Part shown: positions 3,540-18,151 of the stretch, piece by piece
How positions within the stretch are numbered: position 1 is the first letter of the stretch
Layout of the letters: every line of letters starts with the position of its first letter
Assembly (NCBI GenBank): GCA_965247805.1
Contig: OZ252034.1
Coordinates: forward strand, 3,372,192 to 3,404,191
DNA from: Pyrinomonadaceae bacterium
Lineage (GTDB): Bacteria; Acidobacteriota; Blastocatellia; Pyrinomonadales; Pyrinomonadaceae
Direction of reading: 5' to 3'
Length of the DNA: 32,000 bases
Notes under the pieces: model-generated
Database searches by the model: none
Seen by the model: only the letters and a program-made list of their open reading frames with translations
What the model was told of the DNA's origin: nothing
Program-made: the position numbers and the translations under genes

Positions 3540-5762
3540 TCAGTTCGCTAATCTCAAGTATGAAAATTCGCGGTTTTGAGCAATTATCGTCGGATTATTG
3601 TTCGGGATAATGTTTTGCCAGCGTTGGCTGTCGTCCACGATGATCTGCGCTTCTTCAACCGGCACGGGACGCGAGAAAAGATAGCCTTGCCCATTGTCAC
3701 AACCTAAAATTCTTAGTTGGTGAAGCTGATGAATCGTCTCGATGCCTTCGGCGACGACATCCAGATTCAAGGTTTTCGCCAGCGCGATAATCGTGCGGAC
3801 AATCTCGCCGTTTTCGCTGCCGTCTTCCATCGAACTGACGAACGAACGATCAACTTTGAGCGTGTCAATCGGAAAGCGGTGCAGATAACTCAAGGAAGAG
3901 TAACCCGTCCCGAAATCGTCTATCGAAAGTTTGATGCCGAGTGCGCGAATGTTTTTGAGCATCGTAATCGTGTTTTCGGCGTTTTCCATAATTGCGCTTT
4001 CCGTAATTTCCATTTTCAGACACGCCGGATTGACTTGCGTTTCGACGAGAATTTTGCGAATTTGCTCGACTAAATCCGGCTGGGCAAAATGTTTGCCCGA
4101 AAGATTGACGCTCATTATTAAATTTTTATTGAGCGGGGAACGAGCTTGCCATTTGACTAATTGTTCGCAGGTTTTTCGCAAAATCCAGAGTGTCAAAGGC
4201 ACGATCAAACCCGTGTCTTCCGCAACCGGAATAAATTCAATTGGCGCAACAATTCCGCGCTGCGGATGATTCCAACGCATCAACGCTTCAAATCCCATCA
4301 AACTCATCGTTGCCAGATCAATCATCGGCTGGTAATAAACGAGCAGTTCGTCACGTTCGACGGCGTGGCGTAAATCCGTTTCCATTTGCAGCAGATTGAC
4401 GGCGCGAAGGTGCATTGTTTGATCAAAAACAACGTAATCTTTGCTATTTTTCTTTGCCGAATACATTGCAATATCGGCATCACGCAAAATCTCTTCAGCG
4501 TCTTTATAAGTCTGACTGTTAAGCGCGATACCGATGCTGAAATTTGTAAAAACCTGTCTTCCGTTAACCGAAAACGGTGCGGCAACCTTGCGCCTGATTA
4601 AGTCGGCGACCTGCACTGCATCGTCGCTCATCTCGATATTGTTTAAGATAACGGCAAATTCGTCACCGCCGAACCGCGCTACCAAACCGCCTTTCTGCAT
4701 TATTGATGACAGACGCTTGGCAACTTGCAGAATCAGACGGTCGCCCGCCGTATGTCCGAGACTGTCGTTAATTGTTTTGAAGCGGTTGAGGTCCAAAAAT
4801 AATATGGCAAATTTCGTATTCGGTTTTTGCTGCGATGTTTCCAACAAAGATTTGAGTGATTCGATAAAAAAATTGCGATTCGGAAGTCCGGTCAAACTGT
4901 CGTGATAAGCGGCGTGGCGAAAAAGTTCGCGGCTCTCTCTAAGTGCGAGTCCGGTTTTTTCCTGATCGGTGATGTAATGCTGAAGTTCGATGATGTGATT
5001 TTCGGCTTCTTCAGCGCGTTCGCGTTCGGACTGCTCGGCTTTCGCGGCGGTTTCCTTAATGTCGTTCAAATAGTGGCGGTAAGTCGAATAGATTATTGCC
5101 GAAATTGCAAATGTCGCCATCACCAGAAAAGGGTCAACCCGCTGAAAGGATTTAATGACAAGTCCGGCACACGATGCTCCGGCAACATAAAAAATCAACG
5201 TATTGAAACAGTTTTTATACCAGATTTTCCAGAACGATTTACTGTCTTCGGCGCAGATCAGCGAAACGACCAGTGAATTCATTAAAAACTGTGCGACCGC
5301 CATTACGCAGAGCATTTTGACAAAATTCGTCGGTGTTCCGTTAGCAGTTACATCGCCGATAGAATCGAATATATGTCTGAGAATAAATACAGTTACAAAA
5401 GTCGTGACCGCTGAAATCGCACCGTTTAAAAACAATGTCTTTGTACGAAAATGAACACCTTTTCGCTTTAGATTTAACGAATTAAAAATTGATTCGAGAA
5501 CGGCGAGAACAATTCCGACTTCGCCGCCGTAAGTCAGCAGCGCGATAAAAACCAATGTGTCTGAAACCGTTAAATAGAGATTTGTGCGCGGAATCTGAAT
5601 TTGCAGATAAGAACTAAAAAATACCGTAAATATTGTAAATGCGATTAATCCGCTATCAAATTGGCTGAAAGGAATCTGGAATGCGGAGTGTCCGAAAATC
5701 AATAGTCCGACGGCTAAAGTGATCCAGGTTGGGAGTTCGATTGTTTTCGCCTTTTTCGTCAT
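3540..5762 (-). CDS. Membrane-anchored GGDEF-EAL c-di-GMP turnover protein, paralog 1
   Basis: 740-aa ORF. About 8 predicted hydrophobic helices at the N-terminus, then a charged coiled-coil linker, then RFGGDEF, EALMRW and DDFGTGYSSL motifs. Confidence 0.9.
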   Translation of the reverse strand: MTKKAKTIELPTWITLAVGLLIFGHSAFQIPFSQFDSGLIAFTIFTVFFSSYLQIQIPRTNLYLTVSDTLVFIALLTYGGEVGIVLAVLESIFNSLNLKRKGVHFRTKTLFLNGAISAVTTFVTVFILRHIFDSIGDVTANGTPTNFVKMLCVMAVAQFLMNSLVVSLICAEDSKSFWKIWYKNCFNTLIFYVAGASCAGLVIKSFQRVDPFLVMATFAISAIIYSTYRHYLNDIKETAAKAEQSERERAEEAENHIIELQHYITDQEKTGLALRESRELFRHAAYHDSLTGLPNRNFFIESLKSLLETSQQKPNTKFAILFLDLNRFKTINDSLGHTAGDRLILQVAKRLSSIMQKGGLVARFGGDEFAVILNNIEMSDDAVQVADLIRRKVAAPFSVNGRQVFTNFSIGIALNSQTYKDAEEILRDADIAMYSAKKNSKDYVVFDQTMHLRAVNLLQMETDLRHAVERDELLVYYQPMIDLATMSLMGFEALMRWNHPQRGIVAPIEFIPVAEDTGLIVPLTLWILRKTCEQLVKWQARSPLNKNLIMSVNLSGKHFAQPDLVEQIRKILVETQVNPACLKMEITESAIMENAENTITMLKNIRALGIKLSIDDFGTGYSSLSYLHRFPIDTLKVDRSFVSSMEDGSENGEIVRTIIALAKTLNLDVVAEGIETIHQLHQLRILGCDNGQGYLFSRPVPVEEAQIIVDDSQRWQNIIPNNNPTIIAQNREFSYLRLAN
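3645..3929. repeat. Near-identical tract shared with 6162-6446
   Basis: Manual alignment shows a 129-nt perfectly identical block (3711-3839), flanking identical blocks, one 18-nt divergent patch and four further mismatches. The rest of the two genes is clearly diverged. Confidence 0.85.
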
Positions 5763-6044: not shown

Positions 6045-6076
6045 ACCTTCGGAGAATTATTTAGCCAACCGAAGGT
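6045..6076 (-). terminator. Possible hairpin terminator at the stop codon of paralog 2
   Basis: ACCTTCGG (6045-6052) pairs with CCGAAGGT (6069-6076). On the minus strand a T-rich run (TCATTTTCATTTC) follows. Confidence 0.35.
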
Positions 6077-8282
6077 GTGTAAATTCGCGGTTTTGTGCGA
6101 GCGTCGCCGGATTATTGTTCGGAATAACATTTTGCCAGCGCATTTTATCTTCGACAATAAGCTGCGCTTCTTCAACCGGCACGGGACGCGAGAAAAGATA
6201 GCCTTGCCCGTATTCGCAGCCGAGAATTCTTAGTTGGTGAAGCTGATGAATCGTCTCGATGCCTTCGGCGACGACATCCAGATTCAAGGTTTTCGCCAGC
6301 GCGATAATCGTGCGGACAATCTCGCCGTTTTCGCTGCCGTCTTCCATCGAACTGACAAATGAACGGTCAACTTTAAGCGTGTCAATCGGAAAGCGGTGCA
6401 GATAACTCAAGGAAGAGTAACCCGTCCCGAAATCGTCTATCGAAAGCTGTACACCGATTTGTTTGAGACGCTTGAGCATCGAAATCGCCTGTTCAGGATT
6501 GTCCATCACCGCACTTTCCGTAATTTCCAGTTTCAAACATTGCGGCGGCATTTCGGTTTTAATCGTGATTTCCTGAATTCGTTCGACGAGATCGCTGTGA
6601 ACAAAATGTTTGCCCGAAAGATTAACGCTCAGGAATAAAGGCTTTTGTGCCGGATCAAGTCTTTGCAGACGAACGATTTCACGACAAGATTCTTCTAAAA
6701 TCCAATAAGTAATCGCCACGACTAGCCCGGTTTCTTCGGCGACGGGAATAAATTCACTCGGCGGAATCAAACCTCTCTGCGGATGATTCCAGCGAATCAG
6801 AGTTTCAAACCCGTTCAATTCCATTGTGTCGAGCGCGATGATCGGCTGGTAGAATGCACAGAGTTCGCGGCGTTCGATAGCGTAGCGCAAATCGGTTTCG
6901 ATTTGAAGCAGTGTGACGGCGCGAGTGTGCATCGTTTGATTGAAAATCTCGTAGTTTCGCTTGTTGTCCTTAGCGTAATACATCGCAATATCGGCATCGC
7001 GCAGGACTTCTTCGGCTTCGCCATAATTGATGTTGCCAAACGAAATGCCGATGCTCGTATTGATAAAAACTTCCCTGCCGCCGATGTTGAACGGTGAAGA
7101 AAATTTGTAGTTGATGAGTTGCGCGAAACTGACGACATCATCGGTATTTTTGACGTTAGTCAGAATAATCCCAAATTCGTCACCGCCGAAACGTGCCAGT
7201 AAATCTTCGTCCTTAATTAATTCATTCAATCTTTTACCGACGCATTGAATCAGATTATTGCCGATAGAATGTCCGAGACTTTCATTGACGGTCTTGAAGC
7301 GGTTAAGGTCTAAAAACAGCACCGCAAAATTGAACGCGGGATTTTGTTTGTGCTTTTCGAGTTGAAATTTGAGTGTTTCGATAAATGAGTTGCGGTTCGG
7401 CAGTCCGGTCAAATTATCGTGAAAAGCGGCGTGACGAAAACGGTCTTTGCTGACGCGTAAGGCATCGCTGATTTTATTTTGATCGGTAATATGCCGCTGA
7501 AGTTCGACGATGTGATTTTCAGCTTGTTCGGCGCGGTCGCGTTCGGCTTGTTCGGCTTTCGCAGCGGTTTCCCGCATATCGTTAATGTAACGCTTGTAGG
7601 TCATACAGATCAACCCGAAAATTCCGACGACGATGGCGAATAAAAATAAATTGACCTGTGTCAGAGCCTTGACTGCGGCACCCGCAAGAAAGGCGGCGAC
7701 AAAAAACATTAACAGCGCACTTAGTGAATACTCAGCCCAAACACGCAAGACAGTTTTTTCCGATTTAATGGCACTGTAAGCCGTGATTCCAACTGAAGTA
7801 ACGGCAAACTGTAGGCTTGCCATTACAATCAACAGCAATACTAATCGCGTATTATTACCGGTTTCAAGCACGGTATCTACCGAGTTGAACAGATACGCGA
7901 TGACAAACGCCGTCGCGTATGTTGCAGTCGCTGCGACAAAAACATTTGAAAGAATAGTTTTTGTCTTTATTTCAATTGACTGCCGACGGATACTCAGCGA
8001 AGCATAAAGTGACTCTAAAGCCGCTAACAAAACTGCGACTTGTACGCCGTAAACTAATAGTGAAAGAAAAATCAGTGCATCGGAAATTGTGATATGAATC
8101 TCAGTGCGCGGCAATTTGATGCGTAAATACGAACTCAAAAAAATCGTTACAACGGAAAATGCAATCAGCCCGTCATCAATTTTCCCGACCGGAAATCGGT
8201 AAATCGCCCAACCTGACACGGTTAGTCCAATCGGTAAAACAACCGACAAATACAGATTAATATTTCTTTCTTTTTTCTCCAC
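6057..8282 (-). CDS. Membrane-anchored GGDEF-EAL c-di-GMP turnover protein, paralog 2
   Basis: 741-aa ORF with the same architecture as 3540-5762. Motifs are RFGGDEF, ETLIRW (an EAL variant) and DDFGTGYSSL. Confidence 0.9.
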   Translation of the reverse strand: MEKKERNINLYLSVVLPIGLTVSGWAIYRFPVGKIDDGLIAFSVVTIFLSSYLRIKLPRTEIHITISDALIFLSLLVYGVQVAVLLAALESLYASLSIRRQSIEIKTKTILSNVFVAATATYATAFVIAYLFNSVDTVLETGNNTRLVLLLIVMASLQFAVTSVGITAYSAIKSEKTVLRVWAEYSLSALLMFFVAAFLAGAAVKALTQVNLFLFAIVVGIFGLICMTYKRYINDMRETAAKAEQAERDRAEQAENHIVELQRHITDQNKISDALRVSKDRFRHAAFHDNLTGLPNRNSFIETLKFQLEKHKQNPAFNFAVLFLDLNRFKTVNESLGHSIGNNLIQCVGKRLNELIKDEDLLARFGGDEFGIILTNVKNTDDVVSFAQLINYKFSSPFNIGGREVFINTSIGISFGNINYGEAEEVLRDADIAMYYAKDNKRNYEIFNQTMHTRAVTLLQIETDLRYAIERRELCAFYQPIIALDTMELNGFETLIRWNHPQRGLIPPSEFIPVAEETGLVVAITYWILEESCREIVRLQRLDPAQKPLFLSVNLSGKHFVHSDLVERIQEITIKTEMPPQCLKLEITESAVMDNPEQAISMLKRLKQIGVQLSIDDFGTGYSSLSYLHRFPIDTLKVDRSFVSSMEDGSENGEIVRTIIALAKTLNLDVVAEGIETIHQLHQLRILGCEYGQGYLFSRPVPVEEAQLIVEDKMRWQNVIPNNNPATLAQNREFTHLRLAK
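6162..6446. repeat. Near-identical tract shared with 3645-3929
   Basis: See 3645-3929. It encodes the identical peptide LSIDDFGTGYSSLSYLHRFPIDTLKVDRSFVSSMEDGSENGEIVRTIIALAKTLNLDVVAEGIETIHQLHQLRILGC in both genes. Confidence 0.85.
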
Positions 8283-8556: not shown

Positions 8557-10686
8557 TTACTTCGTGATTCCGACTTGGCTCAAAGCGTAAGCGTATTCAA
8601 ATGCAACTTCTTTCAAACGGTCGTATCTGCCGCTTGAACCGCCGTGTCCCGCGCCCATATTTGTTTTGAGCAGGACGATGTTGTCGTCAGTTTTCATTTC
8701 CCGGACTTTCGCGGCGAATTTCGCGCCTTCCCAATACGGAACCTGCGAATCGTTCAGCGAAACTTCGACGAGCATATTCGGGTAATTCTGCGCTTTGACA
8801 TTATCGTAAGGCGAGTATTGAACCATATAATCCCACGCCGCTTTTTCATTCGGATTGCCCCATTCGATCCATTCTTCGGTCGTTAAAGGCAAACTCGCAT
8901 CGAGCATCGTGTTCATCACGTCAACGAACGGAACCTGCGCGATTGCCGCGTGAAAAGTTTCCGGCGACATATTAACGACTCCGCCCATTAGCAGTCCGCC
9001 CGCGCTGCCGCCTTGAATAACCATTCGGTCAGCCGACGTGTATTTATTCGCTTCGAGCCATTTTGCCGAATCAATAAAATCGTGAAAGGTGTTTAATTTC
9101 TTAAACATTCGACCTTCCTGCCGCCATTTTTCGCCGAGTTCCGAACCGCCGCGAATATGCGCGACGGCATATATCATTCCGCGATCCAAAAGACTAAGCC
9201 GCGCCGTTGAGAAACTCGGTGTCATCGAAATTCCGTAACTTCCGTAAGCGTAAAGTAGCATTGGCACAGAACCGTCGAGCTTCGTGCCTTTTTTCCAGAC
9301 AATCGAGATCGGAACTTTCACGCCGTCACGCGCAACCGCCCATAAACGCTTGGTTTCATACTGCGTTTTGTCGTAGCCTGACGGAATTTCCTGCTGTTTG
9401 ATGAGTTCGCTTTTGCGCGTTTTGAAATCGTATTCGTAGGTCGAATTCGGCGTAATCATCGAAGCGTAATTGTATCGAATAATCGGCGTGTCATATTCAG
9501 GATTTGTTGACACGCCCATTGTGTAAACGTCTTCGGGCGTAGCAATCCGCGCCGCCGCCCGCTTCGTTTTCAAATCCATTACCTTGAGATATTCCAAACC
9601 GTTTTCGCGTTCGGAAATGACTGCGTAATCCTTAAAGAAATTAACGTCGTCAATTTTGACCGCCGGATTATGCGCCACAAAATCCTTCCAATTATTTTCG
9701 CCCGGATCATTGAGCGGAGCGCGGACGATCTTAAAGTTTTCCGCGTCTTTGTTGGTGATGATGTAAAATTCACCGTTGTTGAAATCGGCGGAATATTCGT
9801 GACCTTCGCGGCGCGGCGAAACGATTTTCCATTCGCCAAGCGGATTGTCAGCCGGCAAATAACGATACTCGCGCGAAGTTTTGGCTTGCGAACCTAAAAG
9901 CAGCATCTTTTTGTCGCGCGAACGTCCGATACCGATATTGAAAAGCAAGTCCTTTTCTTCAAACAACAAATCGTTTTTGTCCGTGCCGACCGTGTGCCGC
10001 CAAAATTTATCGGAACGCTTTGACACGGCATCTTCCTGCACGACAAACAGATATTTGCCGTCGTTTGACCATTCGGTCGAAGTCGCACGCTCGATTTTAT
10101 CAGGCAAAATTTTGCCGGTTCGTAAATCTTTAATTTGCAGAGTGTATTGACGATAGCCGGTCGTGTCAGTCGAAAACGCAAGCAGATTGCCGTCGTCCGA
10201 AACGTCGAAATCGCCGATGGCAAAATATTTAAAGCCCGTCGCCATCGCATTTTGATCGAGGAGAACTTCCGCGTCTTTGCCGTCCTTGGTTTTGCTCCGC
10301 AGATAAGTCGGGTATTGTTTCCCTTCCTCGGTGCGCGTAAAATACCAGTAATTGCCGAGTTTATAAGGAACGCTCAAATCGGTTTGCTTGATGCGACCGA
10401 TCATTTCCTTGTAAAGATTGTCGGCGAACGGCTGATGCGGCTTCATAAAACTTTCGGTATAAGCATTTTCAGCGTTCAAATAATCCAGAATTTCAGGATT
10501 TTTCTTCTCGTTTCGATCACGCAGCCACGCGTAATTATCGGTAATTTCGTAGCCGTGAATCTTTAAAACTTTTGGGTCTTTTTTTGCAACTGGTGGTTTC
10601 ATATCGGTTTGGGCAACAATTACTGTATTGCCGATGCATATAATTATGCCGACAAAAACGGCAAACACAAAAAGCACACGTTTCAT
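8557..10686 (-). CDS. ptrB: Oligopeptidase B (S9A prolyl oligopeptidase family), secreted or periplasmic
   Basis: 709-aa ORF with a signal peptide. YAWLRD motif, catalytic GGSAGGLL, and a C-terminal GHGG.SGR motif. It is collinear with E. coli PtrB as recalled. Confidence 0.85.
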   Translation of the reverse strand: MKRVLFVFAVFVGIIICIGNTVIVAQTDMKPPVAKKDPKVLKIHGYEITDNYAWLRDRNEKKNPEILDYLNAENAYTESFMKPHQPFADNLYKEMIGRIKQTDLSVPYKLGNYWYFTRTEEGKQYPTYLRSKTKDGKDAEVLLDQNAMATGFKYFAIGDFDVSDDGNLLAFSTDTTGYRQYTLQIKDLRTGKILPDKIERATSTEWSNDGKYLFVVQEDAVSKRSDKFWRHTVGTDKNDLLFEEKDLLFNIGIGRSRDKKMLLLGSQAKTSREYRYLPADNPLGEWKIVSPRREGHEYSADFNNGEFYIITNKDAENFKIVRAPLNDPGENNWKDFVAHNPAVKIDDVNFFKDYAVISERENGLEYLKVMDLKTKRAAARIATPEDVYTMGVSTNPEYDTPIIRYNYASMITPNSTYEYDFKTRKSELIKQQEIPSGYDKTQYETKRLWAVARDGVKVPISIVWKKGTKLDGSVPMLLYAYGSYGISMTPSFSTARLSLLDRGMIYAVAHIRGGSELGEKWRQEGRMFKKLNTFHDFIDSAKWLEANKYTSADRMVIQGGSAGGLLMGGVVNMSPETFHAAIAQVPFVDVMNTMLDASLPLTTEEWIEWGNPNEKAAWDYMVQYSPYDNVKAQNYPNMLVEVSLNDSQVPYWEGAKFAAKVREMKTDDNIVLLKTNMGAGHGGSSGRYDRLKEVAFEYAYALSQVGITK

Positions 10687-13732: not shown

Positions 13733-14782
13733 GTGTTAAAAAATAAACTGTTTTTAGTGATCGCGCTGGTTTTGATTTCCGGCGTTTTGTCGGTTAGTGC
13801 GAAGACTTCCGACGCGGTAAGAGTAACTTTGAATTTTGAAAAAACGATGTTCGCGTATGACGAAAGCGTTCCGGTCAATGTTTCGTTCACGAACGAAGGC
13901 AAATCGAGCGTCAGAATCCTGCGATGGCTGACACCATTTGACGGCGTGAAAGACAATCTGTTCGTTGTCACGGTCAACGGCAAACCTGTTCAATACATCG
14001 GCGCGGATTATAAACGTCCGGCACCGACCGAGAAGGATTATGTTACAATCAACACGGGTGAAACATTCAATTCAACGGTTGATCTGGCGGGTTATTACGA
14101 CTTGTCGGAAACGGGTTATTACCAGGTAAATTACGGCATCGAATCGGCAAACGCTTTTTCGGCGCAGACGAGTTTGCTCAAACAAGCCGATTCGTTAAAA
14201 TCGGACACCGCGCAGACCTACATCGAAGGACGCGAACCCGCGCAGTTTCAAAATATCGCCGACGCGGTTTCAGGTTCGACAAGTTATACAGGTTGTTCGA
14301 GTTCGCGTCAATCTTCGCTGTTGACGGCGCGAAGCAACGCTTCGACCTACGCCGCCAATTCGTTTAATTACCTGAACGCCGGAACAGTCGGGGCGCGTTA
14401 CACGACTTGGTTCGGGACTTACAGTGCGACACGTTACTCAACGGTTCGCAGTCATTATTCAAACATTCGCAGCGCAATGGACACGGCAAGCGTTACATTC
14501 AACTGCACCTGCACCGACAGCGCGTATGCCTACGTTTATCCGACTCAGCCATATACGATTTACCTGTGCAACGCATTCTGGAGCGCACCTTCGACCGGAA
14601 CTGATTCCAAAGCCGGAACGCTCGTTCACGAAATGAGTCACTTCAATATAGTCGCGTCAACCGACGATTGGGCTTACGGTCAAACCGCCGCCAAAAATCT
14701 GGCAAGAACCAACACGACGAGAGCCGTTGACAACGCTGACAGCCACGAATATTTCGCGGAAAACACTCCGGCACAACCTTAA
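13733..14782 (+). CDS. Secreted M35-like aspzincin metalloprotease (peptidyl-Lys metalloendopeptidase family)
   Basis: 349-aa ORF with a GTG start after GGAGGA and a signal peptide. HEMSH (HExxH) is followed by DDWAYG (GTxDxxYG-type third-ligand Asp motif), and the C-terminal domain is Cys-rich. Confidence 0.8.
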   Translation: MLKNKLFLVIALVLISGVLSVSAKTSDAVRVTLNFEKTMFAYDESVPVNVSFTNEGKSSVRILRWLTPFDGVKDNLFVVTVNGKPVQYIGADYKRPAPTEKDYVTINTGETFNSTVDLAGYYDLSETGYYQVNYGIESANAFSAQTSLLKQADSLKSDTAQTYIEGREPAQFQNIADAVSGSTSYTGCSSSRQSSLLTARSNASTYAANSFNYLNAGTVGARYTTWFGTYSATRYSTVRSHYSNIRSAMDTASVTFNCTCTDSAYAYVYPTQPYTIYLCNAFWSAPSTGTDSKAGTLVHEMSHFNIVASTDDWAYGQTAAKNLARTNTTRAVDNADSHEYFAENTPAQP

Positions 14783-14804
14783 ATTTTTATAATTTTTTAC
14801 AAAT

Positions 14805-14838
14805 AAAAAGGCAGAAGATTAATTTCTCCTGCCTTTTT
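14805..14838. terminator. Bidirectional terminator between convergent genes
   Basis: AAAAA-GGCAGAAG-loop-CTCCTGCC-TTTTT: an 8-bp stem with one mismatch, flanked by an A-run and a T-run. Confidence 0.55.
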
Positions 14839-15466
14839 ATTCATCAATTTTTTCTGAAATAATTTGAAATAATCTCTCGCAATGCGGCGCGGCTTCACGA
14901 ACTTTTTGCGGATTGATAATTTCTAAAAGTTTCGCTCCGTGTTTAGTTTTATGATATTCACCTTTCTGAGTGTTTTTTGTAGCATTTGCTAAATGATTTT
15001 CAACATCTGATTTTTTGATCTTTTCGACATTAGCATTTTTTGTAAGCGCATTACGGTTAAAATTCTGCCCGTAAAACTCAGCTAATTTGTCTTTGTCGGC
15101 AAAAAACCACGACTCCATCAAATGCACCATTAAATGACATTGATTTTCTTCTGCTTCTTGCAGATGCCATAGCGGATTTTGCTTTTGCAGAAAAGATTTC
15201 GGCGTTTCGTCTTCATCAATCGGCGCGTCGGAATCAAGCAGAAACAAAACGAAAGTGTTTTGATATTCCCTTTTGCCGTCAAGAAACTTCTTAAAAGTTT
15301 CAAATTTCGAGCCATAAGTTATCGGGCGAAGCGTCATATTTTTGCTTTTGGCTTTATCAACCAACTCACGAAAAAAACTATTGAAACCTTGCCGAAGCGT
15401 GATGTCAGTGTTTTTGCCTTTGTGTTTGGTGTCGCCTTCGATGTAGATTCTGATTTCTTTCACCAT
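14837..15466 (-). CDS. DUF4276/RloB-like small protein with TOPRIM-like E...DxD motifs (putative nuclease partner)
   Basis: ORF of 209 aa from the ATG at 15466 (MVKEIRIYIEGD..); the tracked ORF extends to 15496. YIEGD, and later FLLDSDAP, resemble the TOPRIM Glu and DxD. ATGGTGA overlaps the upstream ATPase stop. The family name is from memory. Confidence 0.7.
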   Translation of the reverse strand: MVKEIRIYIEGDTKHKGKNTDITLRQGFNSFFRELVDKAKSKNMTLRPITYGSKFETFKKFLDGKREYQNTFVLFLLDSDAPIDEDETPKSFLQKQNPLWHLQEAEENQCHLMVHLMESWFFADKDKLAEFYGQNFNRNALTKNANVEKIKKSDVENHLANATKNTQKGEYHKTKHGAKLLEIINPQKVREAAPHCERLFQIISEKIDE

Positions 15467-16668
15467 CGCGTCCCGCCGATTTCTCCTTTCAGCCACAAAT
15501 CACCGAGTGAATATTCATCAAGCCACGCTTTCAATCTATCTTTTTCCAGACGCTTGAAGTGCGTTCCGTCCTCGTCTTTTTCGCAAACCAAAACGGCTTC
15601 GGGAATTTCGGAAAAAGCGGAAACGAGAATGTCCGAATGTGTCGTGACAATAAGCTGCGTTCGCTGCGAAGCCTCGATCATCAATTCGGCAATCGTCGGC
15701 AGAATATCAGGATGCAAACCCGTTTCCGGTTCTTCGATACAAATCAACGGTGGCGGCGCGGGATGACAAAGAATCGCCAGCAAACACAGATAACGCAAAG
15801 TCCCGTCCGAAAGACGTTTTGCAGAAATCGCCGTCTTGAGATTTTTTTCAACAAGATAAAATTGTAAATAATCACCTACATTTCTAACTTCATAATCATT
15901 TACATTTGGATAAAATCTTCTTAAATTTTCTATGATTTTGCTCTTTATTTCACCTTTTTTCTTTAGGTTATTCAAAATATGTGAAAGATTATTTCCATCT
16001 TCTTCCAGAAATTCATCCAAAATGTCGGGAGATTTAGGAGTTCTCAAATCAGAAGAACGGTTTGTATTTAAGTCTGAATAAATTTTAAAATCAGCTAAAA
16101 TTGTTCCCAAAATAGAAACTTCATAGAAATTAGCAAAATCCCTAACTTGCGAGAAAACTGACTCTCCTAAAGGTAATTTTCCAGATAAAATGTTTCGATA
16201 ATCTTTTTGTGGAGACACCTCATACAAACCATTAAGTGAGCTAAAATAATCTATTACATTTTCTGAGTTTTCAAATCTTTTATGTTCCTCTTGAAGGGAT
16301 TCTCTGATTACCGATACTTTGAAGTTGATTTCAGCAAATTCAAGTTTATAACGAAGTGATGGAGGGGTTTGTGAATATTCACTTCTAACAATTCCATTAA
16401 TTATTAATTCAATTGCTGTAAAATCCTCGCTTTCCTTTCCTTTCCAAATCCATTCGCTAATTCCGCCGTTTTTACTAATAAAAGTTGCCAAGCCTTTATC
16501 TTGTGGAAGCGAACGCAAAAGTTTTATGACATCAATTAAATTCGATTTGCCCGAAGCGTTTTGACCGATGATTATATTAAGAGGCTCAAGCTCGATTTCT
16601 TCGCCTTTGTCGCCGAAGGAAAGAATGTTTCGCAATTTGATTTTTTCGATTAAGCGTTTGCCTTCCAT
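15460..16668 (-). CDS. ABC/AAA_21-type ATPase (OLD/AriA/AbiLi-like)
   Basis: 402-aa ORF. Walker A GQNASGKSN, ABC signature LSDGT, Walker B LICIEEPETGLHP, H-loop TTHSD. A long insert of about 215 aa separates Walker A from the signature motif. Confidence 0.85.
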   Translation of the reverse strand: MEGKRLIEKIKLRNILSFGDKGEEIELEPLNIIIGQNASGKSNLIDVIKLLRSLPQDKGLATFISKNGGISEWIWKGKESEDFTAIELIINGIVRSEYSQTPPSLRYKLEFAEINFKVSVIRESLQEEHKRFENSENVIDYFSSLNGLYEVSPQKDYRNILSGKLPLGESVFSQVRDFANFYEVSILGTILADFKIYSDLNTNRSSDLRTPKSPDILDEFLEEDGNNLSHILNNLKKKGEIKSKIIENLRRFYPNVNDYEVRNVGDYLQFYLVEKNLKTAISAKRLSDGTLRYLCLLAILCHPAPPPLICIEEPETGLHPDILPTIAELMIEASQRTQLIVTTHSDILVSAFSEIPEAVLVCEKDEDGTHFKRLEKDRLKAWLDEYSLGDLWLKGEIGGTRW

Positions 16669-16710
16669 ATCGTTTCAGATTATAACTCAACTTTTGAAAT
16701 TTGCGATTTT

Positions 16711-16912
16711 GTCGCTGAAAGCGACCGACAATATAGCGTAGGGTGAAACCCTACGTCAGTTTAATCAATGACGCACTCGCTAAAGGCGAGCAACAAATTT
16801 GCGGCGCATTGTTCGACACCTTCAGCGTCGGAATATATTTTCGATTGACATAGGGTTCTCGCTCATTTCATTCGCTTCACCCTATGCTATATTATTGGTC
16901 GCCGTTGGCGAC
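16711..16912. mobile_element. 202-bp MITE-like element with 37-bp imperfect terminal inverted repeats and nested hairpins
   Basis: GTCGCTGAAAGCGACCGACAATATAGCGTAGGGTGAA (16711-16747) aligns with the reverse complement of 16876-16912. Each end is itself a small hairpin (GTCGC-TGAAA-GCGAC and GTCGCC-GTT-GGCGAC). There is no coding capacity. Confidence 0.5.
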
Positions 16913-16935: not shown

Positions 16936-17013
16936 AAAAGTAAAAAAGCAAAAGTTAAAGAATCGCTTCCTTACTTTTGCCTTTTTACTTTTACCTTTTG
17001 CCTTTTTACTTTT
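16936..17013. repeat. 20/21-nt tandem repeat plus inverted copy at the 3' end of gltA (probable terminator hairpin)
   Basis: ACTTTTGCCTTTTTACTTTT (16973-16992) is repeated at 16993-17013. An inverted copy, AAAAGTAAAAAAGCAAAAGT, lies at 16936-16955. The gltA stop (17012-17014) sits in the second unit. Confidence 0.6.
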
Positions 17014-18151
17014 ACCTTTCTTCAATCGGAACATATTTCAAATCGCGTGCGCCGATGTATTCGGCACGCGGACGAATGAGTTTGTTGTTGCCGTATTGCT
17101 CTAAAATATGTCCCGTCCAACCGGAAATGCGCGAAACGGCGAAGATCGGCGTGTATTGGTCGAGCGGAATATCCATCAGGTAATATGCCGAAGCCGAATA
17201 GAAATCGACGTTCGGGTGCATTCCTTTTTTCTCCAACATCGCCTTTTCGATTTTTTGCGACATATTGAACCATTTCATTTCGCCGCGTTTTTCGCCCAAC
17301 TGTTTTGAGAATTTGCGAAGCCACGTCGCGCGCGGGTCTTCGGTTTTATAGACGGCGTGACCGATGCCCATAATTTTGCGTTTTTCTTCGAGAGCTTTGT
17401 CGAGCCACGAATCAATATTTTCTTCGCTGCCGATTTCCTTGAGCATTTTCATCACATTCGTATTCGCGCCGCCGTGCAGCGGTCCGGCGAGTGCCGCGAT
17501 TCCGCCCGTGACCGCGCCGTAGATGTCGGCAAGCGTTCCGGCAATCACGCGCGTCGTGAACGTCGAAGCGTTCAGTTCGTGGTCGGCGTGCAGAATTAAC
17601 GCGATGTCGAAAATTTTAGCTTCGTCGGCTTCCGGTTTTTCGCCCGTGAACATATAGAGGAAATTTTCAGCGATGCTCAAACTGTCGTCCGGCGCGATTG
17701 GTTCTTTGCCGGTGCGAATGCGTTCCCACGCGGCGACGACTGTGCCAATCTGTGCAGTTAATTTAACGGCAGTTTTGACGGCAGTTTCGCGGTCGGTTCC
17801 GTGTCCGTTTTTGTCGTAAAATCCAAGTGCGGAAACGCTCGTGCGGAGAACGTCCATCGGATTCGCGTCCTTCGGAAAGGTTTTCATCATCTCGACGAGT
17901 TCCGCCGGAATGTCGCTGTTCGCCTGAAATTGCGCTTTCAAATCTTCGAGTTCCGCTTTTTTCGGCAGACGACCGTTCCAAAGTAAAAATATGACTTCTT
18001 CAAACGTCGAATTCTCGGCTAAATCGTGAATATCATAGCCTTGATAAATTAAAATTCCCTGTTCGCCGTTGACATCGCCGATTGCGCTCTGCGCGGCAAC
18101 TACGCCTCGTAATCCGGCGGTCGCGGCGGTTGATTCTGTTGCTGTACTCAT
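17012..18151 (-). CDS. gltA: Citrate synthase (about 380-aa type; a 2-methylcitrate synthase is not excluded)
   Basis: 379-aa ORF with GPLHGGAN and GIGHAVYKTEDPR motifs typical of citrate synthase. Confidence 0.88.
   Translation of the reverse strand: MSTATESTAATAGLRGVVAAQSAIGDVNGEQGILIYQGYDIHDLAENSTFEEVIFLLWNGRLPKKAELEDLKAQFQANSDIPAELVEMMKTFPKDANPMDVLRTSVSALGFYDKNGHGTDRETAVKTAVKLTAQIGTVVAAWERIRTGKEPIAPDDSLSIAENFLYMFTGEKPEADEAKIFDIALILHADHELNASTFTTRVIAGTLADIYGAVTGGIAALAGPLHGGANTNVMKMLKEIGSEENIDSWLDKALEEKRKIMGIGHAVYKTEDPRATWLRKFSKQLGEKRGEMKWFNMSQKIEKAMLEKKGMHPNVDFYSASAYYLMDIPLDQYTPIFAVSRISGWTGHILEQYGNNKLIRPRAEYIGARDLKYVPIEER

Follow-up and report, generated by a model that had tools for sequence, protein, structure and literature searches.

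What does a pair of overlapping genes, one for an ATP-binding cassette (ABC)-type ATPase and the other for a small protein of the DUF4276 family, do between a peptidase gene and the citrate synthase gene on the chromosome of a Pyrinomonadaceae bacterium (Acidobacteriota)? The pair lies on a stretch of 32,000 nucleotides (nt) of contig OZ252034.1 (assembly GCA_965247805.1, positions 3,372,192 to 3,404,191), which is called the window in the following and within which all positions are counted. A first-pass annotation of this DNA had read the pair as a split OLD-like immunity module, consisting of an ATPase and a TOPRIM-like effector of the DUF4276 type, and this is supported by Pfam, by PADLOC, by published classifications and by the co-occurrence of both genes in 80 of 80 related loci. 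The pair belongs to HEC-01, a family of candidate anti-phage systems with two genes each, which is related in split form to the logic of OLD, Gabija and PARIS. The first-pass annotation had also presented the pairing as unrecognised, which was mistaken, because PADLOC contains HEC-01 models and there is published work on HEC-01 and MADS: the pairing has been recognised, named as a candidate and partly tested, with two published phage assays of which one was negative and one positive. The probability that the pair is a HEC-01-type defence module that stands alone and works broadly by the mechanism proposed below can be estimated at roughly 70%. The two genes and their junction are as follows.

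15460-16668, minus strand: HEC-01A-type ATPase with an ABC/SMC head, 402 amino acids (aa); from the open reading frame, Pfam, PADLOC and fold matches of an AlphaFold2 (AF2) model
14837-15466, minus strand: HEC-01B-type DUF4276 protein, 209 aa, putative Toprim-like metal-dependent nuclease; from the open reading frame, Pfam, PADLOC and AF2
15460-15466, minus strand: ATGGTGA, in which the stop codon of the ATPase gene and the start codon of the nuclease gene overlap (translational coupling); from the sequence

Both reading frames and their ATGGTGA coupling were thus found where they had been annotated. As mechanically called, the DUF4276 reading frame extends to an upstream GTG start (14837-15496, 219 aa), and most plausibly the protein starts at the ATG at 15466, which gives the 209 aa listed here.

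The ATPase contains the complete motif set of an ABC/SMC-type ATPase in the expected order, as had been noted at first sight, with Walker A (GQNASGKSN, aa 35-43), an LSGGQ-like signature (LSDGT, aa 286-290), Walker B (aa 308-315, within LICIEEPETGLHP at aa 308-320) and the His-switch (TTHSD, aa 342-346). Only the distance from Walker A to the signature has to be revised, from about 215 to about 242 aa. Conservation of residues and motifs in both proteins was scored in 75 homologues from several phyla, and the motif positions of the ATPase are mostly conserved in 88-100% of these, with a few lower (52-83%). In Pfam, the protein matches AAA_21 (1.4e-36), AAA_15 (4e-17), SMC_N (2.7e-11) and also AAA_23. 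The PADLOC model HEC-01A (PDLC04177) matches over practically the full length (E 2.7e-145, 482 bits, aa 5-402 on profile positions 3-393 of 393), whereas the models of other systems are much weaker, namely AriA with 1.2e-36, AbiLi with 1.4e-26, mad3 with 1.3e-25 (88.8 bits), and Old and GajA with about 1e-15. The NCBIfam model MAD3 (NF047739) reaches 116.3 bits, which is below its cut-off of 420 bits, and covers aa 204-393 only. The AF2 model of the ATPase is of moderate quality, with a predicted local distance difference test score (pLDDT) of 72 and low confidence for the core strands at the N- and C-terminus. With this model, Foldseek finds PtuA, Rad50 and SMC heads at E values of about 1e-6, and the closest solved structures are those of PtuA (probability 1.0), yet with TM-scores of just 0.3-0.4.

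The small protein had been assigned to DUF4276, which proved right: DUF4276 is its sole Pfam match (1.9e-21, 77.6 bits, cut-off 30.2 bits), without Toprim_OLD (PF20469). Of the Pfam families that had been expected for the pair, AAA_21, AAA_15 and DUF4276 were thus all matched and a RloB or Toprim profile was not; neither Pfam nor PADLOC gave a DUF4435 or RloB match for the small protein. The PADLOC model HEC-01B (PDLC04201) again covers the whole protein (E 1.3e-63, 212 bits, aa 1-207 on profile positions 1-200 of 202), and none of the PADLOC models of other systems, including mad4, AriB and AbiLii, matches it. The YIEGD motif spans aa 8-12 and LLDSDAP aa 75-81, so that the predicted arrangement of a Glu followed by DxD is present: among the 75 sequences, E10 is conserved in 97% (the others have D), position 80 is occupied by D in 15 and by E in 60, and G11, D78, E118, W120 and D124 are conserved in 100%, with G52 at 96% and K173 at 97%. 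The AF2 model, which was built on a 34-sequence alignment, is of high confidence (pLDDT 92.9) and has the order strand b1 (aa 4-10), helices, b2 (45-51), helix, b3 (71-78), helix, b4 (110-113) and a helical tail. E10 ends b1, G52 directly follows b2, and D78-x-D80 is at the end of b3.

Toprim domains are defined by the order of a Glu, a Gly and a DxD motif (PMC6755086), and by motif and topology the small protein has all three. E118 belongs to the helix that comes first after b4, K173 to the helical tail, and judged by position rather than by superposition, E10, D78/D80, E118 and K173 appear to parallel E400, D455/D457, E508 and K562 of the Burkholderia OLD nuclease. HEC-01 was described as a 'Hma-embedded candidate', consisting of an ABC ATPase together with a TOPRIM partner, and its predicted metal site has been aligned with that of Burkholderia OLD (Payne et al., bioRxiv 10.1101/2024.01.29.577857). 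The DUF4276 family has been placed in the Toprim superfamily, and Mad4 has been called a DUF4276 homologue, in the paper on Menshen (PMC12065111). Also in the PARIS paper, 'MADS3-4' (AAA15/21 and DUF4276) is listed among the systems that combine an ABC ATPase with a TOPRIM protein (PMC11464382).

Two cysteines of the small protein are conserved as well, C110 in 60 and C196 in 69 of the 75 sequences, and both are invariant in the closer set of 34 sequences. Each adjoins a frequently conserved His (QCH... at aa 110-111 and PHC... at aa 195-196). These residues might make up a metal site, or else a disulphide that joins the Toprim core to the helical tail; this Cys-His feature is not mentioned in the papers cited here.

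How constant is the pairing? A scan of one genome per species yielded at least 552 stretches with DUF4276 relatives, the best 80 of which were examined; these span Acidobacteriota, cyanobacteria, Longimicrobium, Dehalococcoidia, Planctomycetota and others. A homologue of the ATPase is encoded directly upstream of the DUF4276 gene in every one of the 80 loci, and the 7-nt register of the overlap is kept in nearly all of them (ATGGTAA in 37, ATGGTGA in 6, variants with GTG, TTG or CTG in the rest). The DUF4276 family comprises about 2,230 clusters at 50% identity among 1.84 billion protein representatives, and the best 150 clusters are all stand-alone proteins, mostly of about 200 aa. In relatives similar to Pyrinomonadaceae the pair occupies a conserved site, with the order citrate synthase, pair, and an operon of DUF4252 and sigma factor genes, and in 9 Acidobacteriota loci it lies beside citrate synthase.

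In 16 cyanobacterial loci the pair is located directly beside mutS, on either side of it and co-directional (loci L013, L024, L034, L038, L048, L051, L055, L061, L063, L064, L071, L073, L076 and L077 are among them), which could mean that the site is a hotspot of integration or that the pair is functionally linked to mismatch repair. An apparent mutS adjacency in two Acidobacteriota loci was discarded, as the 'MutS' reading frames there are spurious fragments of 94-97 aa. In two Nostocales loci (L038:10703-11947 and L071, about 2029-2403) a second, different ABC ATPase adjoins the HEC-01-like pair, and this one is matched by PADLOC models of the PDC-M07A/NsnB type with E values down to 1e-181.

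Of the new findings, the one that seems to tell the most is that the ATPase is a mosaic of a conserved core and a cassette-like hypervariable insert. The insert was compared in 119 close homologues and, also at the DNA level, with L002, the locus of a relative.

15844-16488, minus strand: insert of the ATPase (aa 61-275), AT-rich and hypervariable; from comparisons of identity and of guanine-plus-cytosine (GC) content
16090-16446, minus strand: most divergent part of the insert, about aa 75-193; from DNA identity with L002

In the close homologues, the median identity to the ATPase of the window is 88% in the core and 29% in the insert, residues 81-200 are conserved in only 4-26%, and even between ATPases whose cores are at least 95% identical the median identity of the inserts is still just 45%. 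Compared with L002, the identity of the ATPase is 95% over its first 60 aa, 89% over its last 127 aa and only 29% over residues 61-275, and that of the DUF4276 protein is 83%. The DNA identity with L002 is mostly 75-93% over the upstream element described below, both cores of the ATPase and the gene of the nuclease (with a few bins of 60 nt at 68-73%), drops sharply to 23-48% within 16446-16090, and rises through about 60% by 15850. The break is abrupt on the N-terminal side, where the flanking level is 85-93%. When the insert alone was used in BLASTP, a few alleles of the same type (P0127 to P0132) came first and were followed by alleles from distant phyla, and neighbours with a similar core such as L002 were not found; the similarity of inserts is therefore incongruent with the phylogeny of the core.

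The insert also accounts for the base composition of the pair. The pair had been described as much more AT-rich than its neighbours, and with a GC content of 0.373, as compared to 0.497 in the M35 peptidase gene, 0.508 in the citrate synthase gene and 0.454 in the whole window, it is, but the low GC is concentrated in the insert (GC 0.298, and 0.19 at third codon positions) and the C-terminal core of the ATPase is at 0.492. Because the drop is localised in this way, the AT-richness is mainly a property of the insert, and an AT-rich insert is likewise present in the Acidobacteriota relatives of the ATPase. A recent horizontal acquisition of the pair was considered and is rejected, because the AT-richness is localised and because the locus is syntenic in relatives. 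Also a diversity-generating retroelement was considered as the origin of the variation and rejected, with neither a reverse transcriptase nor a template repeat in the window and with a divergence that looks like the replacement of a segment with insertions and deletions.

The pattern of the insert fits a specificity or sensor domain that is replaced by recombination, and it is the variability that would be expected of a diversifying sensor. The nuclease tracks the core of the ATPase and not its insert, which suggests that the insert faces something outside the complex that both proteins may form. A comparable distribution has been described for PARIS, where the sensor surfaces and pores of AriA are poorly conserved and the effector parts are conserved (PMC11464382).

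In the mechanism proposed here, by analogy to PARIS and to OLD and Gabija, the ATPase and the DUF4276 nuclease would associate in a stoichiometric manner, and within this complex the ATPase would keep the nuclease inactive. The hypervariable insert would serve as the sensing surface for a phage or another foreign trigger, and binding of the trigger, coupled to the binding or hydrolysis of ATP, would free or activate the nuclease. The nuclease would then cut nucleic acid, either host tRNA, as does AriB of PARIS, or the invading DNA, as do OLD and Gabija, and the infection would be aborted or restricted. Two published experiments are in its favour: a cold-seep HEC-01 that was cloned alone gave E. 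coli B protection from at least one of the phages T4, T5 and T7 (Nat Commun 2026, PMC12881386), and MADS is weakened by the deletion of mad3 or mad4, its genes for a related ATPase and DUF4276 protein.

Several results weigh against a defence module that operates in this way. The HEC-01 representative of Payne et al. did not protect E. coli against any phage tried (bioRxiv 10.1101/2024.01.29.577857). As to the nuclease, Foldseek with the small protein against the Protein Data Bank (PDB) gave a best E value of 0.088, with GajA at 0.17 and the Thermus OLD at 0.44 (probability 0.63), and no match at E 0.001; the viral structures of BFVD gave nothing significant; a hmmsearch with the DUF4276 alignment against PDB sequences found matches at chance level only, such as a spermidine synthase at E 0.32; and hhalign with DUF4276 alignments (effective number of sequences, Neff, 2.6 and 4.3) gave no meaningful alignment with the Toprim part of P2 Old, for which the alignment was shallow (Neff 1.6), as the homologue search gave just 5 proteins and the viral scan just close relatives. 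These searches do not confirm the Toprim relationship at significance, and it is the motifs, the topology predicted by the model and two published analyses that support it. As to the genomic context, the homologous pairs had been expected to co-occur, as they do, and to be enriched in mobile or defence contexts, as they are not: neither at the locus of the window nor at those of its 80 nearest relatives is there a defence island, an embedding in Hma or MADS systems, or an adjacent integrase or transposase. Any one PADLOC family matched at most 3 of the 123 proteins encoded immediately beside the pair in the 80 loci, and the commonest Pfam families among these are transporters and metabolic enzymes. 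The conserved syntenic position is unusual for defence genes with their fast turnover, and a scan of viral contigs for relatives of the DUF4276 protein found none.

The pair could instead be a housekeeping module for the maintenance or repair of DNA, similar to RecF, a SMC-like ABC ATPase, with RecR, a Toprim protein, that is vertically inherited and acts on the cell's own DNA. The synteny with citrate synthase in the 9 Acidobacteriota loci, the mutS neighbourhood in the 16 cyanobacterial ones, the metabolic and housekeeping neighbours, the missing viral copies and the one negative phage assay all agree with such a role. However, a cassette-like hypervariable domain among nearly identical cores is not expected in a housekeeping enzyme, the family was discovered embedded in defence systems and is matched far better by PADLOC defence models than by repair families, one representative protects against phage, and with its mere 2,230 or so clusters in 1.84 billion proteins the family is patchy. 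A repair function is thus quite unlikely.

The pair might also be an accessory or orphan sub-module that needs a methylation system of the Hma or MADS type and that, alone, is either inactive or serves a partner elsewhere in the genome. HEC-01 is indeed defined by its embedding in Hma, the stand-alone representative of Payne et al. was inactive, and Mad3 and Mad4 act within an eight-gene MADS operon, where a deletion of mad3 or mad4 weakens the defence and where the methylase gene mad5 can be deleted only if mad2 or mad3 is deleted as well. Against such a dependence, no helicase, methyltransferase or other MADS or Hma gene (including MAD6-8, which are mandatory in MADS) was found in the 32-kb window, and none recurs beside the 80 related pairs; the MAD3 score is weak (116 as compared to 420 bits) and PADLOC gives no mad4 match; and the cold-seep HEC-01 gave protection when cloned alone. 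The reading frames are intact and the catalytic residues conserved across phyla, which argues for a function as a pair; the orphan state is improbable.

Finally, a selfish addiction module of the toxin-antitoxin kind, with the nuclease as toxin, the ATPase as its neutraliser and post-segregational killing as the reason for its persistence, is very improbable, since in spite of the formal resemblance of a tight, translationally coupled two-gene operon with a putative nuclease to type II or type IV toxin-antitoxin systems, and of the Pfam label of AAA_21 ('putative AbiEii toxin, Type IV TA system'), the pair is chromosomal, syntenic and single-copy with no plasmid, phage or integrative-element genes nearby, the confinement of the hypervariability to one domain of the ATPase would be unexplained, and the difference from abortive-infection defence is largely semantic.

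The stand-alone defence module hence remains the preferred interpretation, and with it the question arises of how such a pair is expressed. Upstream of the ATPase gene are two conserved features.

16711-16912, minus strand: 202-bp structured inverted-repeat element, similar to a miniature inverted-repeat transposable element (MITE), 42 nt upstream of the ATPase ATG; from its arms, its folding and its copies
16679-16684, minus strand: TATAAT hexamer, 10 nt before the ATG of the ATPase; from the sequence, invariant in the window, in L002 and in another relative, L003

The first-pass annotation had noticed the element as a terminal inverted repeat element that bounds the module. The element itself is there, with arms of 37 nt each (16711-16747 and 16876-16912, 81% complementary), a folding z-score of -9 and four to five small hairpins, but it is no private boundary of this module, being a conserved member of a multi-copy family. 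It is short and non-coding, has terminal inverted repeats and occurs in multiple dispersed copies, which is what characterises MITE-like elements. A 16-nt core of the arms recurs in many metagenome contigs, and about 50 of the 120 stretches listed from these (L092-L211) align to the element; among them only L142 has the arrangement of element and ATPase seen in the window, and L133 contains a more distant ATPase and DUF4276 pair without similarity to the element. L002 carries two copies 2 kb apart (8579-8791 and 6463-6665), and further copies are at L003:5359-5583 and L142:526-738; 12 of 15 full-length copies are intergenic.

In front of the ATPase gene, the window, L002, L003 and L142 have orthologous copies of the element, which end 42-44 nt before the ATG. 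These orthologous copies are 89-92% identical, as compared to 58-78% at the third codon positions of the flanking conserved genes, which suggests that the element is under constraint. In the more distant relatives L004 and L019 a related element is found upstream as well. In an alignment of 16 copies, compensatory changes occur in 23 of the 51 pairs predicted, and on the strand that is sense for the ATPase two G-U pairs are conserved; Rfam found no credible family in the window including the upstream element. It may be a so far undescribed MITE- or REP-like (repetitive extragenic palindromic) or structured-RNA family of soil Acidobacteriota, and its position before the ATPase gene is conserved in relatives and does not mark the boundary of a recent insertion. 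A promoter-like site (16759-16730, minus strand) lies inside its proximal arm, and the element may act as promoter or leader of the pair. A Shine-Dalgarno sequence is missing before the ATG of the ATPase, and the TATAAT hexamer would be a possible -10 box of a nearly leaderless transcript.

Insert and element can be brought together. The insert may be an exchangeable specificity cassette, which comes from an AT-rich pool of alleles and recombines into a conserved, vertically inherited and chromosomally fixed defence locus, and the upstream element may be a domesticated promoter or regulatory RNA of this locus. That both hold together is a tentative idea and rather doubtful as it stands. If both were true, an immune locus of the core genome would re-target its sensing by replacement of a cassette, not by gain or loss of the whole system.

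On its other side, the pair is followed by the terminator that had been annotated there, here with slightly extended limits.

14802-14841, no strand: bidirectional terminator-like hairpin between the convergent nuclease and M35 genes; from inverted repeat I7

The arms of this hairpin (14802-14818 and 14825-14841) have 17 nt, are 94% complementary and enclose a 6-nt loop, and the hairpin is flanked by A and T runs, so that T runs are present on both strands; a simple terminator scan does not list it. Pfam identifies the immediate flanking genes as those of a M35 (aspzincin) peptidase and of citrate synthase, as the first-pass annotation had it. The M35 peptidase gene (13733-14782, plus strand) is missing from the syntenic site in L002, where the DUF4276 gene directly precedes the operon of DUF4252 and sigma factor genes; relative to L002 it is thus the M35 gene, not the pair, that is the lineage-specific insertion. 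L002 has in turn a DUF433 gene between citrate synthase and the upstream element (L002:8174-8479), which the window lacks. Proteins with DUF433 are in many cases partners of the antitoxin kind.

The 3' end of the citrate synthase gene contains an exact 21-bp tandem duplication, CTTTTGCCTTTTTACTTTTAC, which occurs twice at 16974-17015, where it overlaps the last codons and the region downstream. Together with 16936-16959 it forms an A/T-rich inverted repeat of 92-95% complementarity (region 16936-17015), and it may be the terminator of citrate synthase or a product of slippage. Further away in the 32 kb of the window are genes for Maf, DciA, an amidase, two GGDEF-EAL proteins, a prolyl oligopeptidase, an extracytoplasmic function (ECF) sigma factor with DUF4252 genes, a S-adenosylmethionine (SAM) hydroxide adenosyltransferase, M16 peptidases and similar proteins. 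The two GGDEF-EAL proteins are tandem paralogues of about 740 aa (3540-5762 and 6057-8282, minus strand), each with an N-terminal membrane or sensor region, and one of them has a weak heliorhodopsin-like match (E 1.8e-4, below the Pfam cut-off).

Categorically, the pair is nothing new, as the combination of an ABC ATPase with DUF4276 is already contained in PADLOC and in phylogenies of OLD- and PARIS-like systems. Its value lies in being a clean, stand-alone and chromosomally fixed example of a candidate family. The difference between an 88%-identical core and a 29%-identical insert points to where the specificity probably lies and offers natural sets of alleles, and for the regulation of such loci the conserved, structured upstream repeat gives a small lead of its own.

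Among the known systems, HEC-01 is the closest. Both proteins of the window are full-length matches to HEC-01A and HEC-01B, as the PADLOC analysis of the locus confirmed, and like in other HEC-01 loci the gene of an ABC ATPase is followed by an adjacent, co-directional gene of a small TOPRIM-like protein; the difference is that the pair of the window stands alone among housekeeping genes, outside any Hma (helicase-methylase-ATPase) system. Mad3-Mad4 of MADS from Pseudomonas aeruginosa likewise pairs an AAA_15/21 ABC ATPase with a DUF4276 protein, but the ATPase of the window is no MAD3 equivalog (116 bits with a cut-off of 420, and in PADLOC 88.8 bits for mad3 as compared to 482 for HEC-01A). 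The OLD nucleases and GajA of Gabija share the combination of an ABC ATPase with a Toprim-type acidic site, which is fused in those proteins and divided into two reading frames here, and the pair has no UvrD-like or GajB partner. AbiL is split as well, into an AAA_21-type ATPase (AbiLi, the models of which match the ATPase of the window with 1.4e-26) and a small partner of the Toprim superfamily, but this partner, AbiLii, is RloB-like and not a DUF4276 protein. PtuA of Septu and retrons provides the closest solved structures for the ATPase model and has the HNH nuclease PtuB as its partner instead.

For the insert alone, an analogy can be drawn to the target-recognition domains of HsdS in type I restriction, where conserved flanks surround a specificity segment of lower GC content that is hypervariable and exchanged by recombination. 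The insert of the HEC-01A ATPase is likewise hypervariable, low in GC and flanked by conserved parts, although the two are unrelated in sequence and structure and a specificity role of the insert is putative.

PARIS differs in its effector, as AriB is a DUF4435 tRNase and the pair of the window has a DUF4276 protein, for which tRNA cleavage is hypothetical, in the far weaker match of AriA models (1.2e-36) than of HEC-01A, and in its frequent carriage by phages or satellites, while no copy of the window pair was found in viral contigs. It is like the window pair in that a split ATPase and Toprim protein are encoded by two genes, and with its sequestration, sensing and release of the nuclease PARIS is the best mechanistic template for how HEC-01-type pairs may work.

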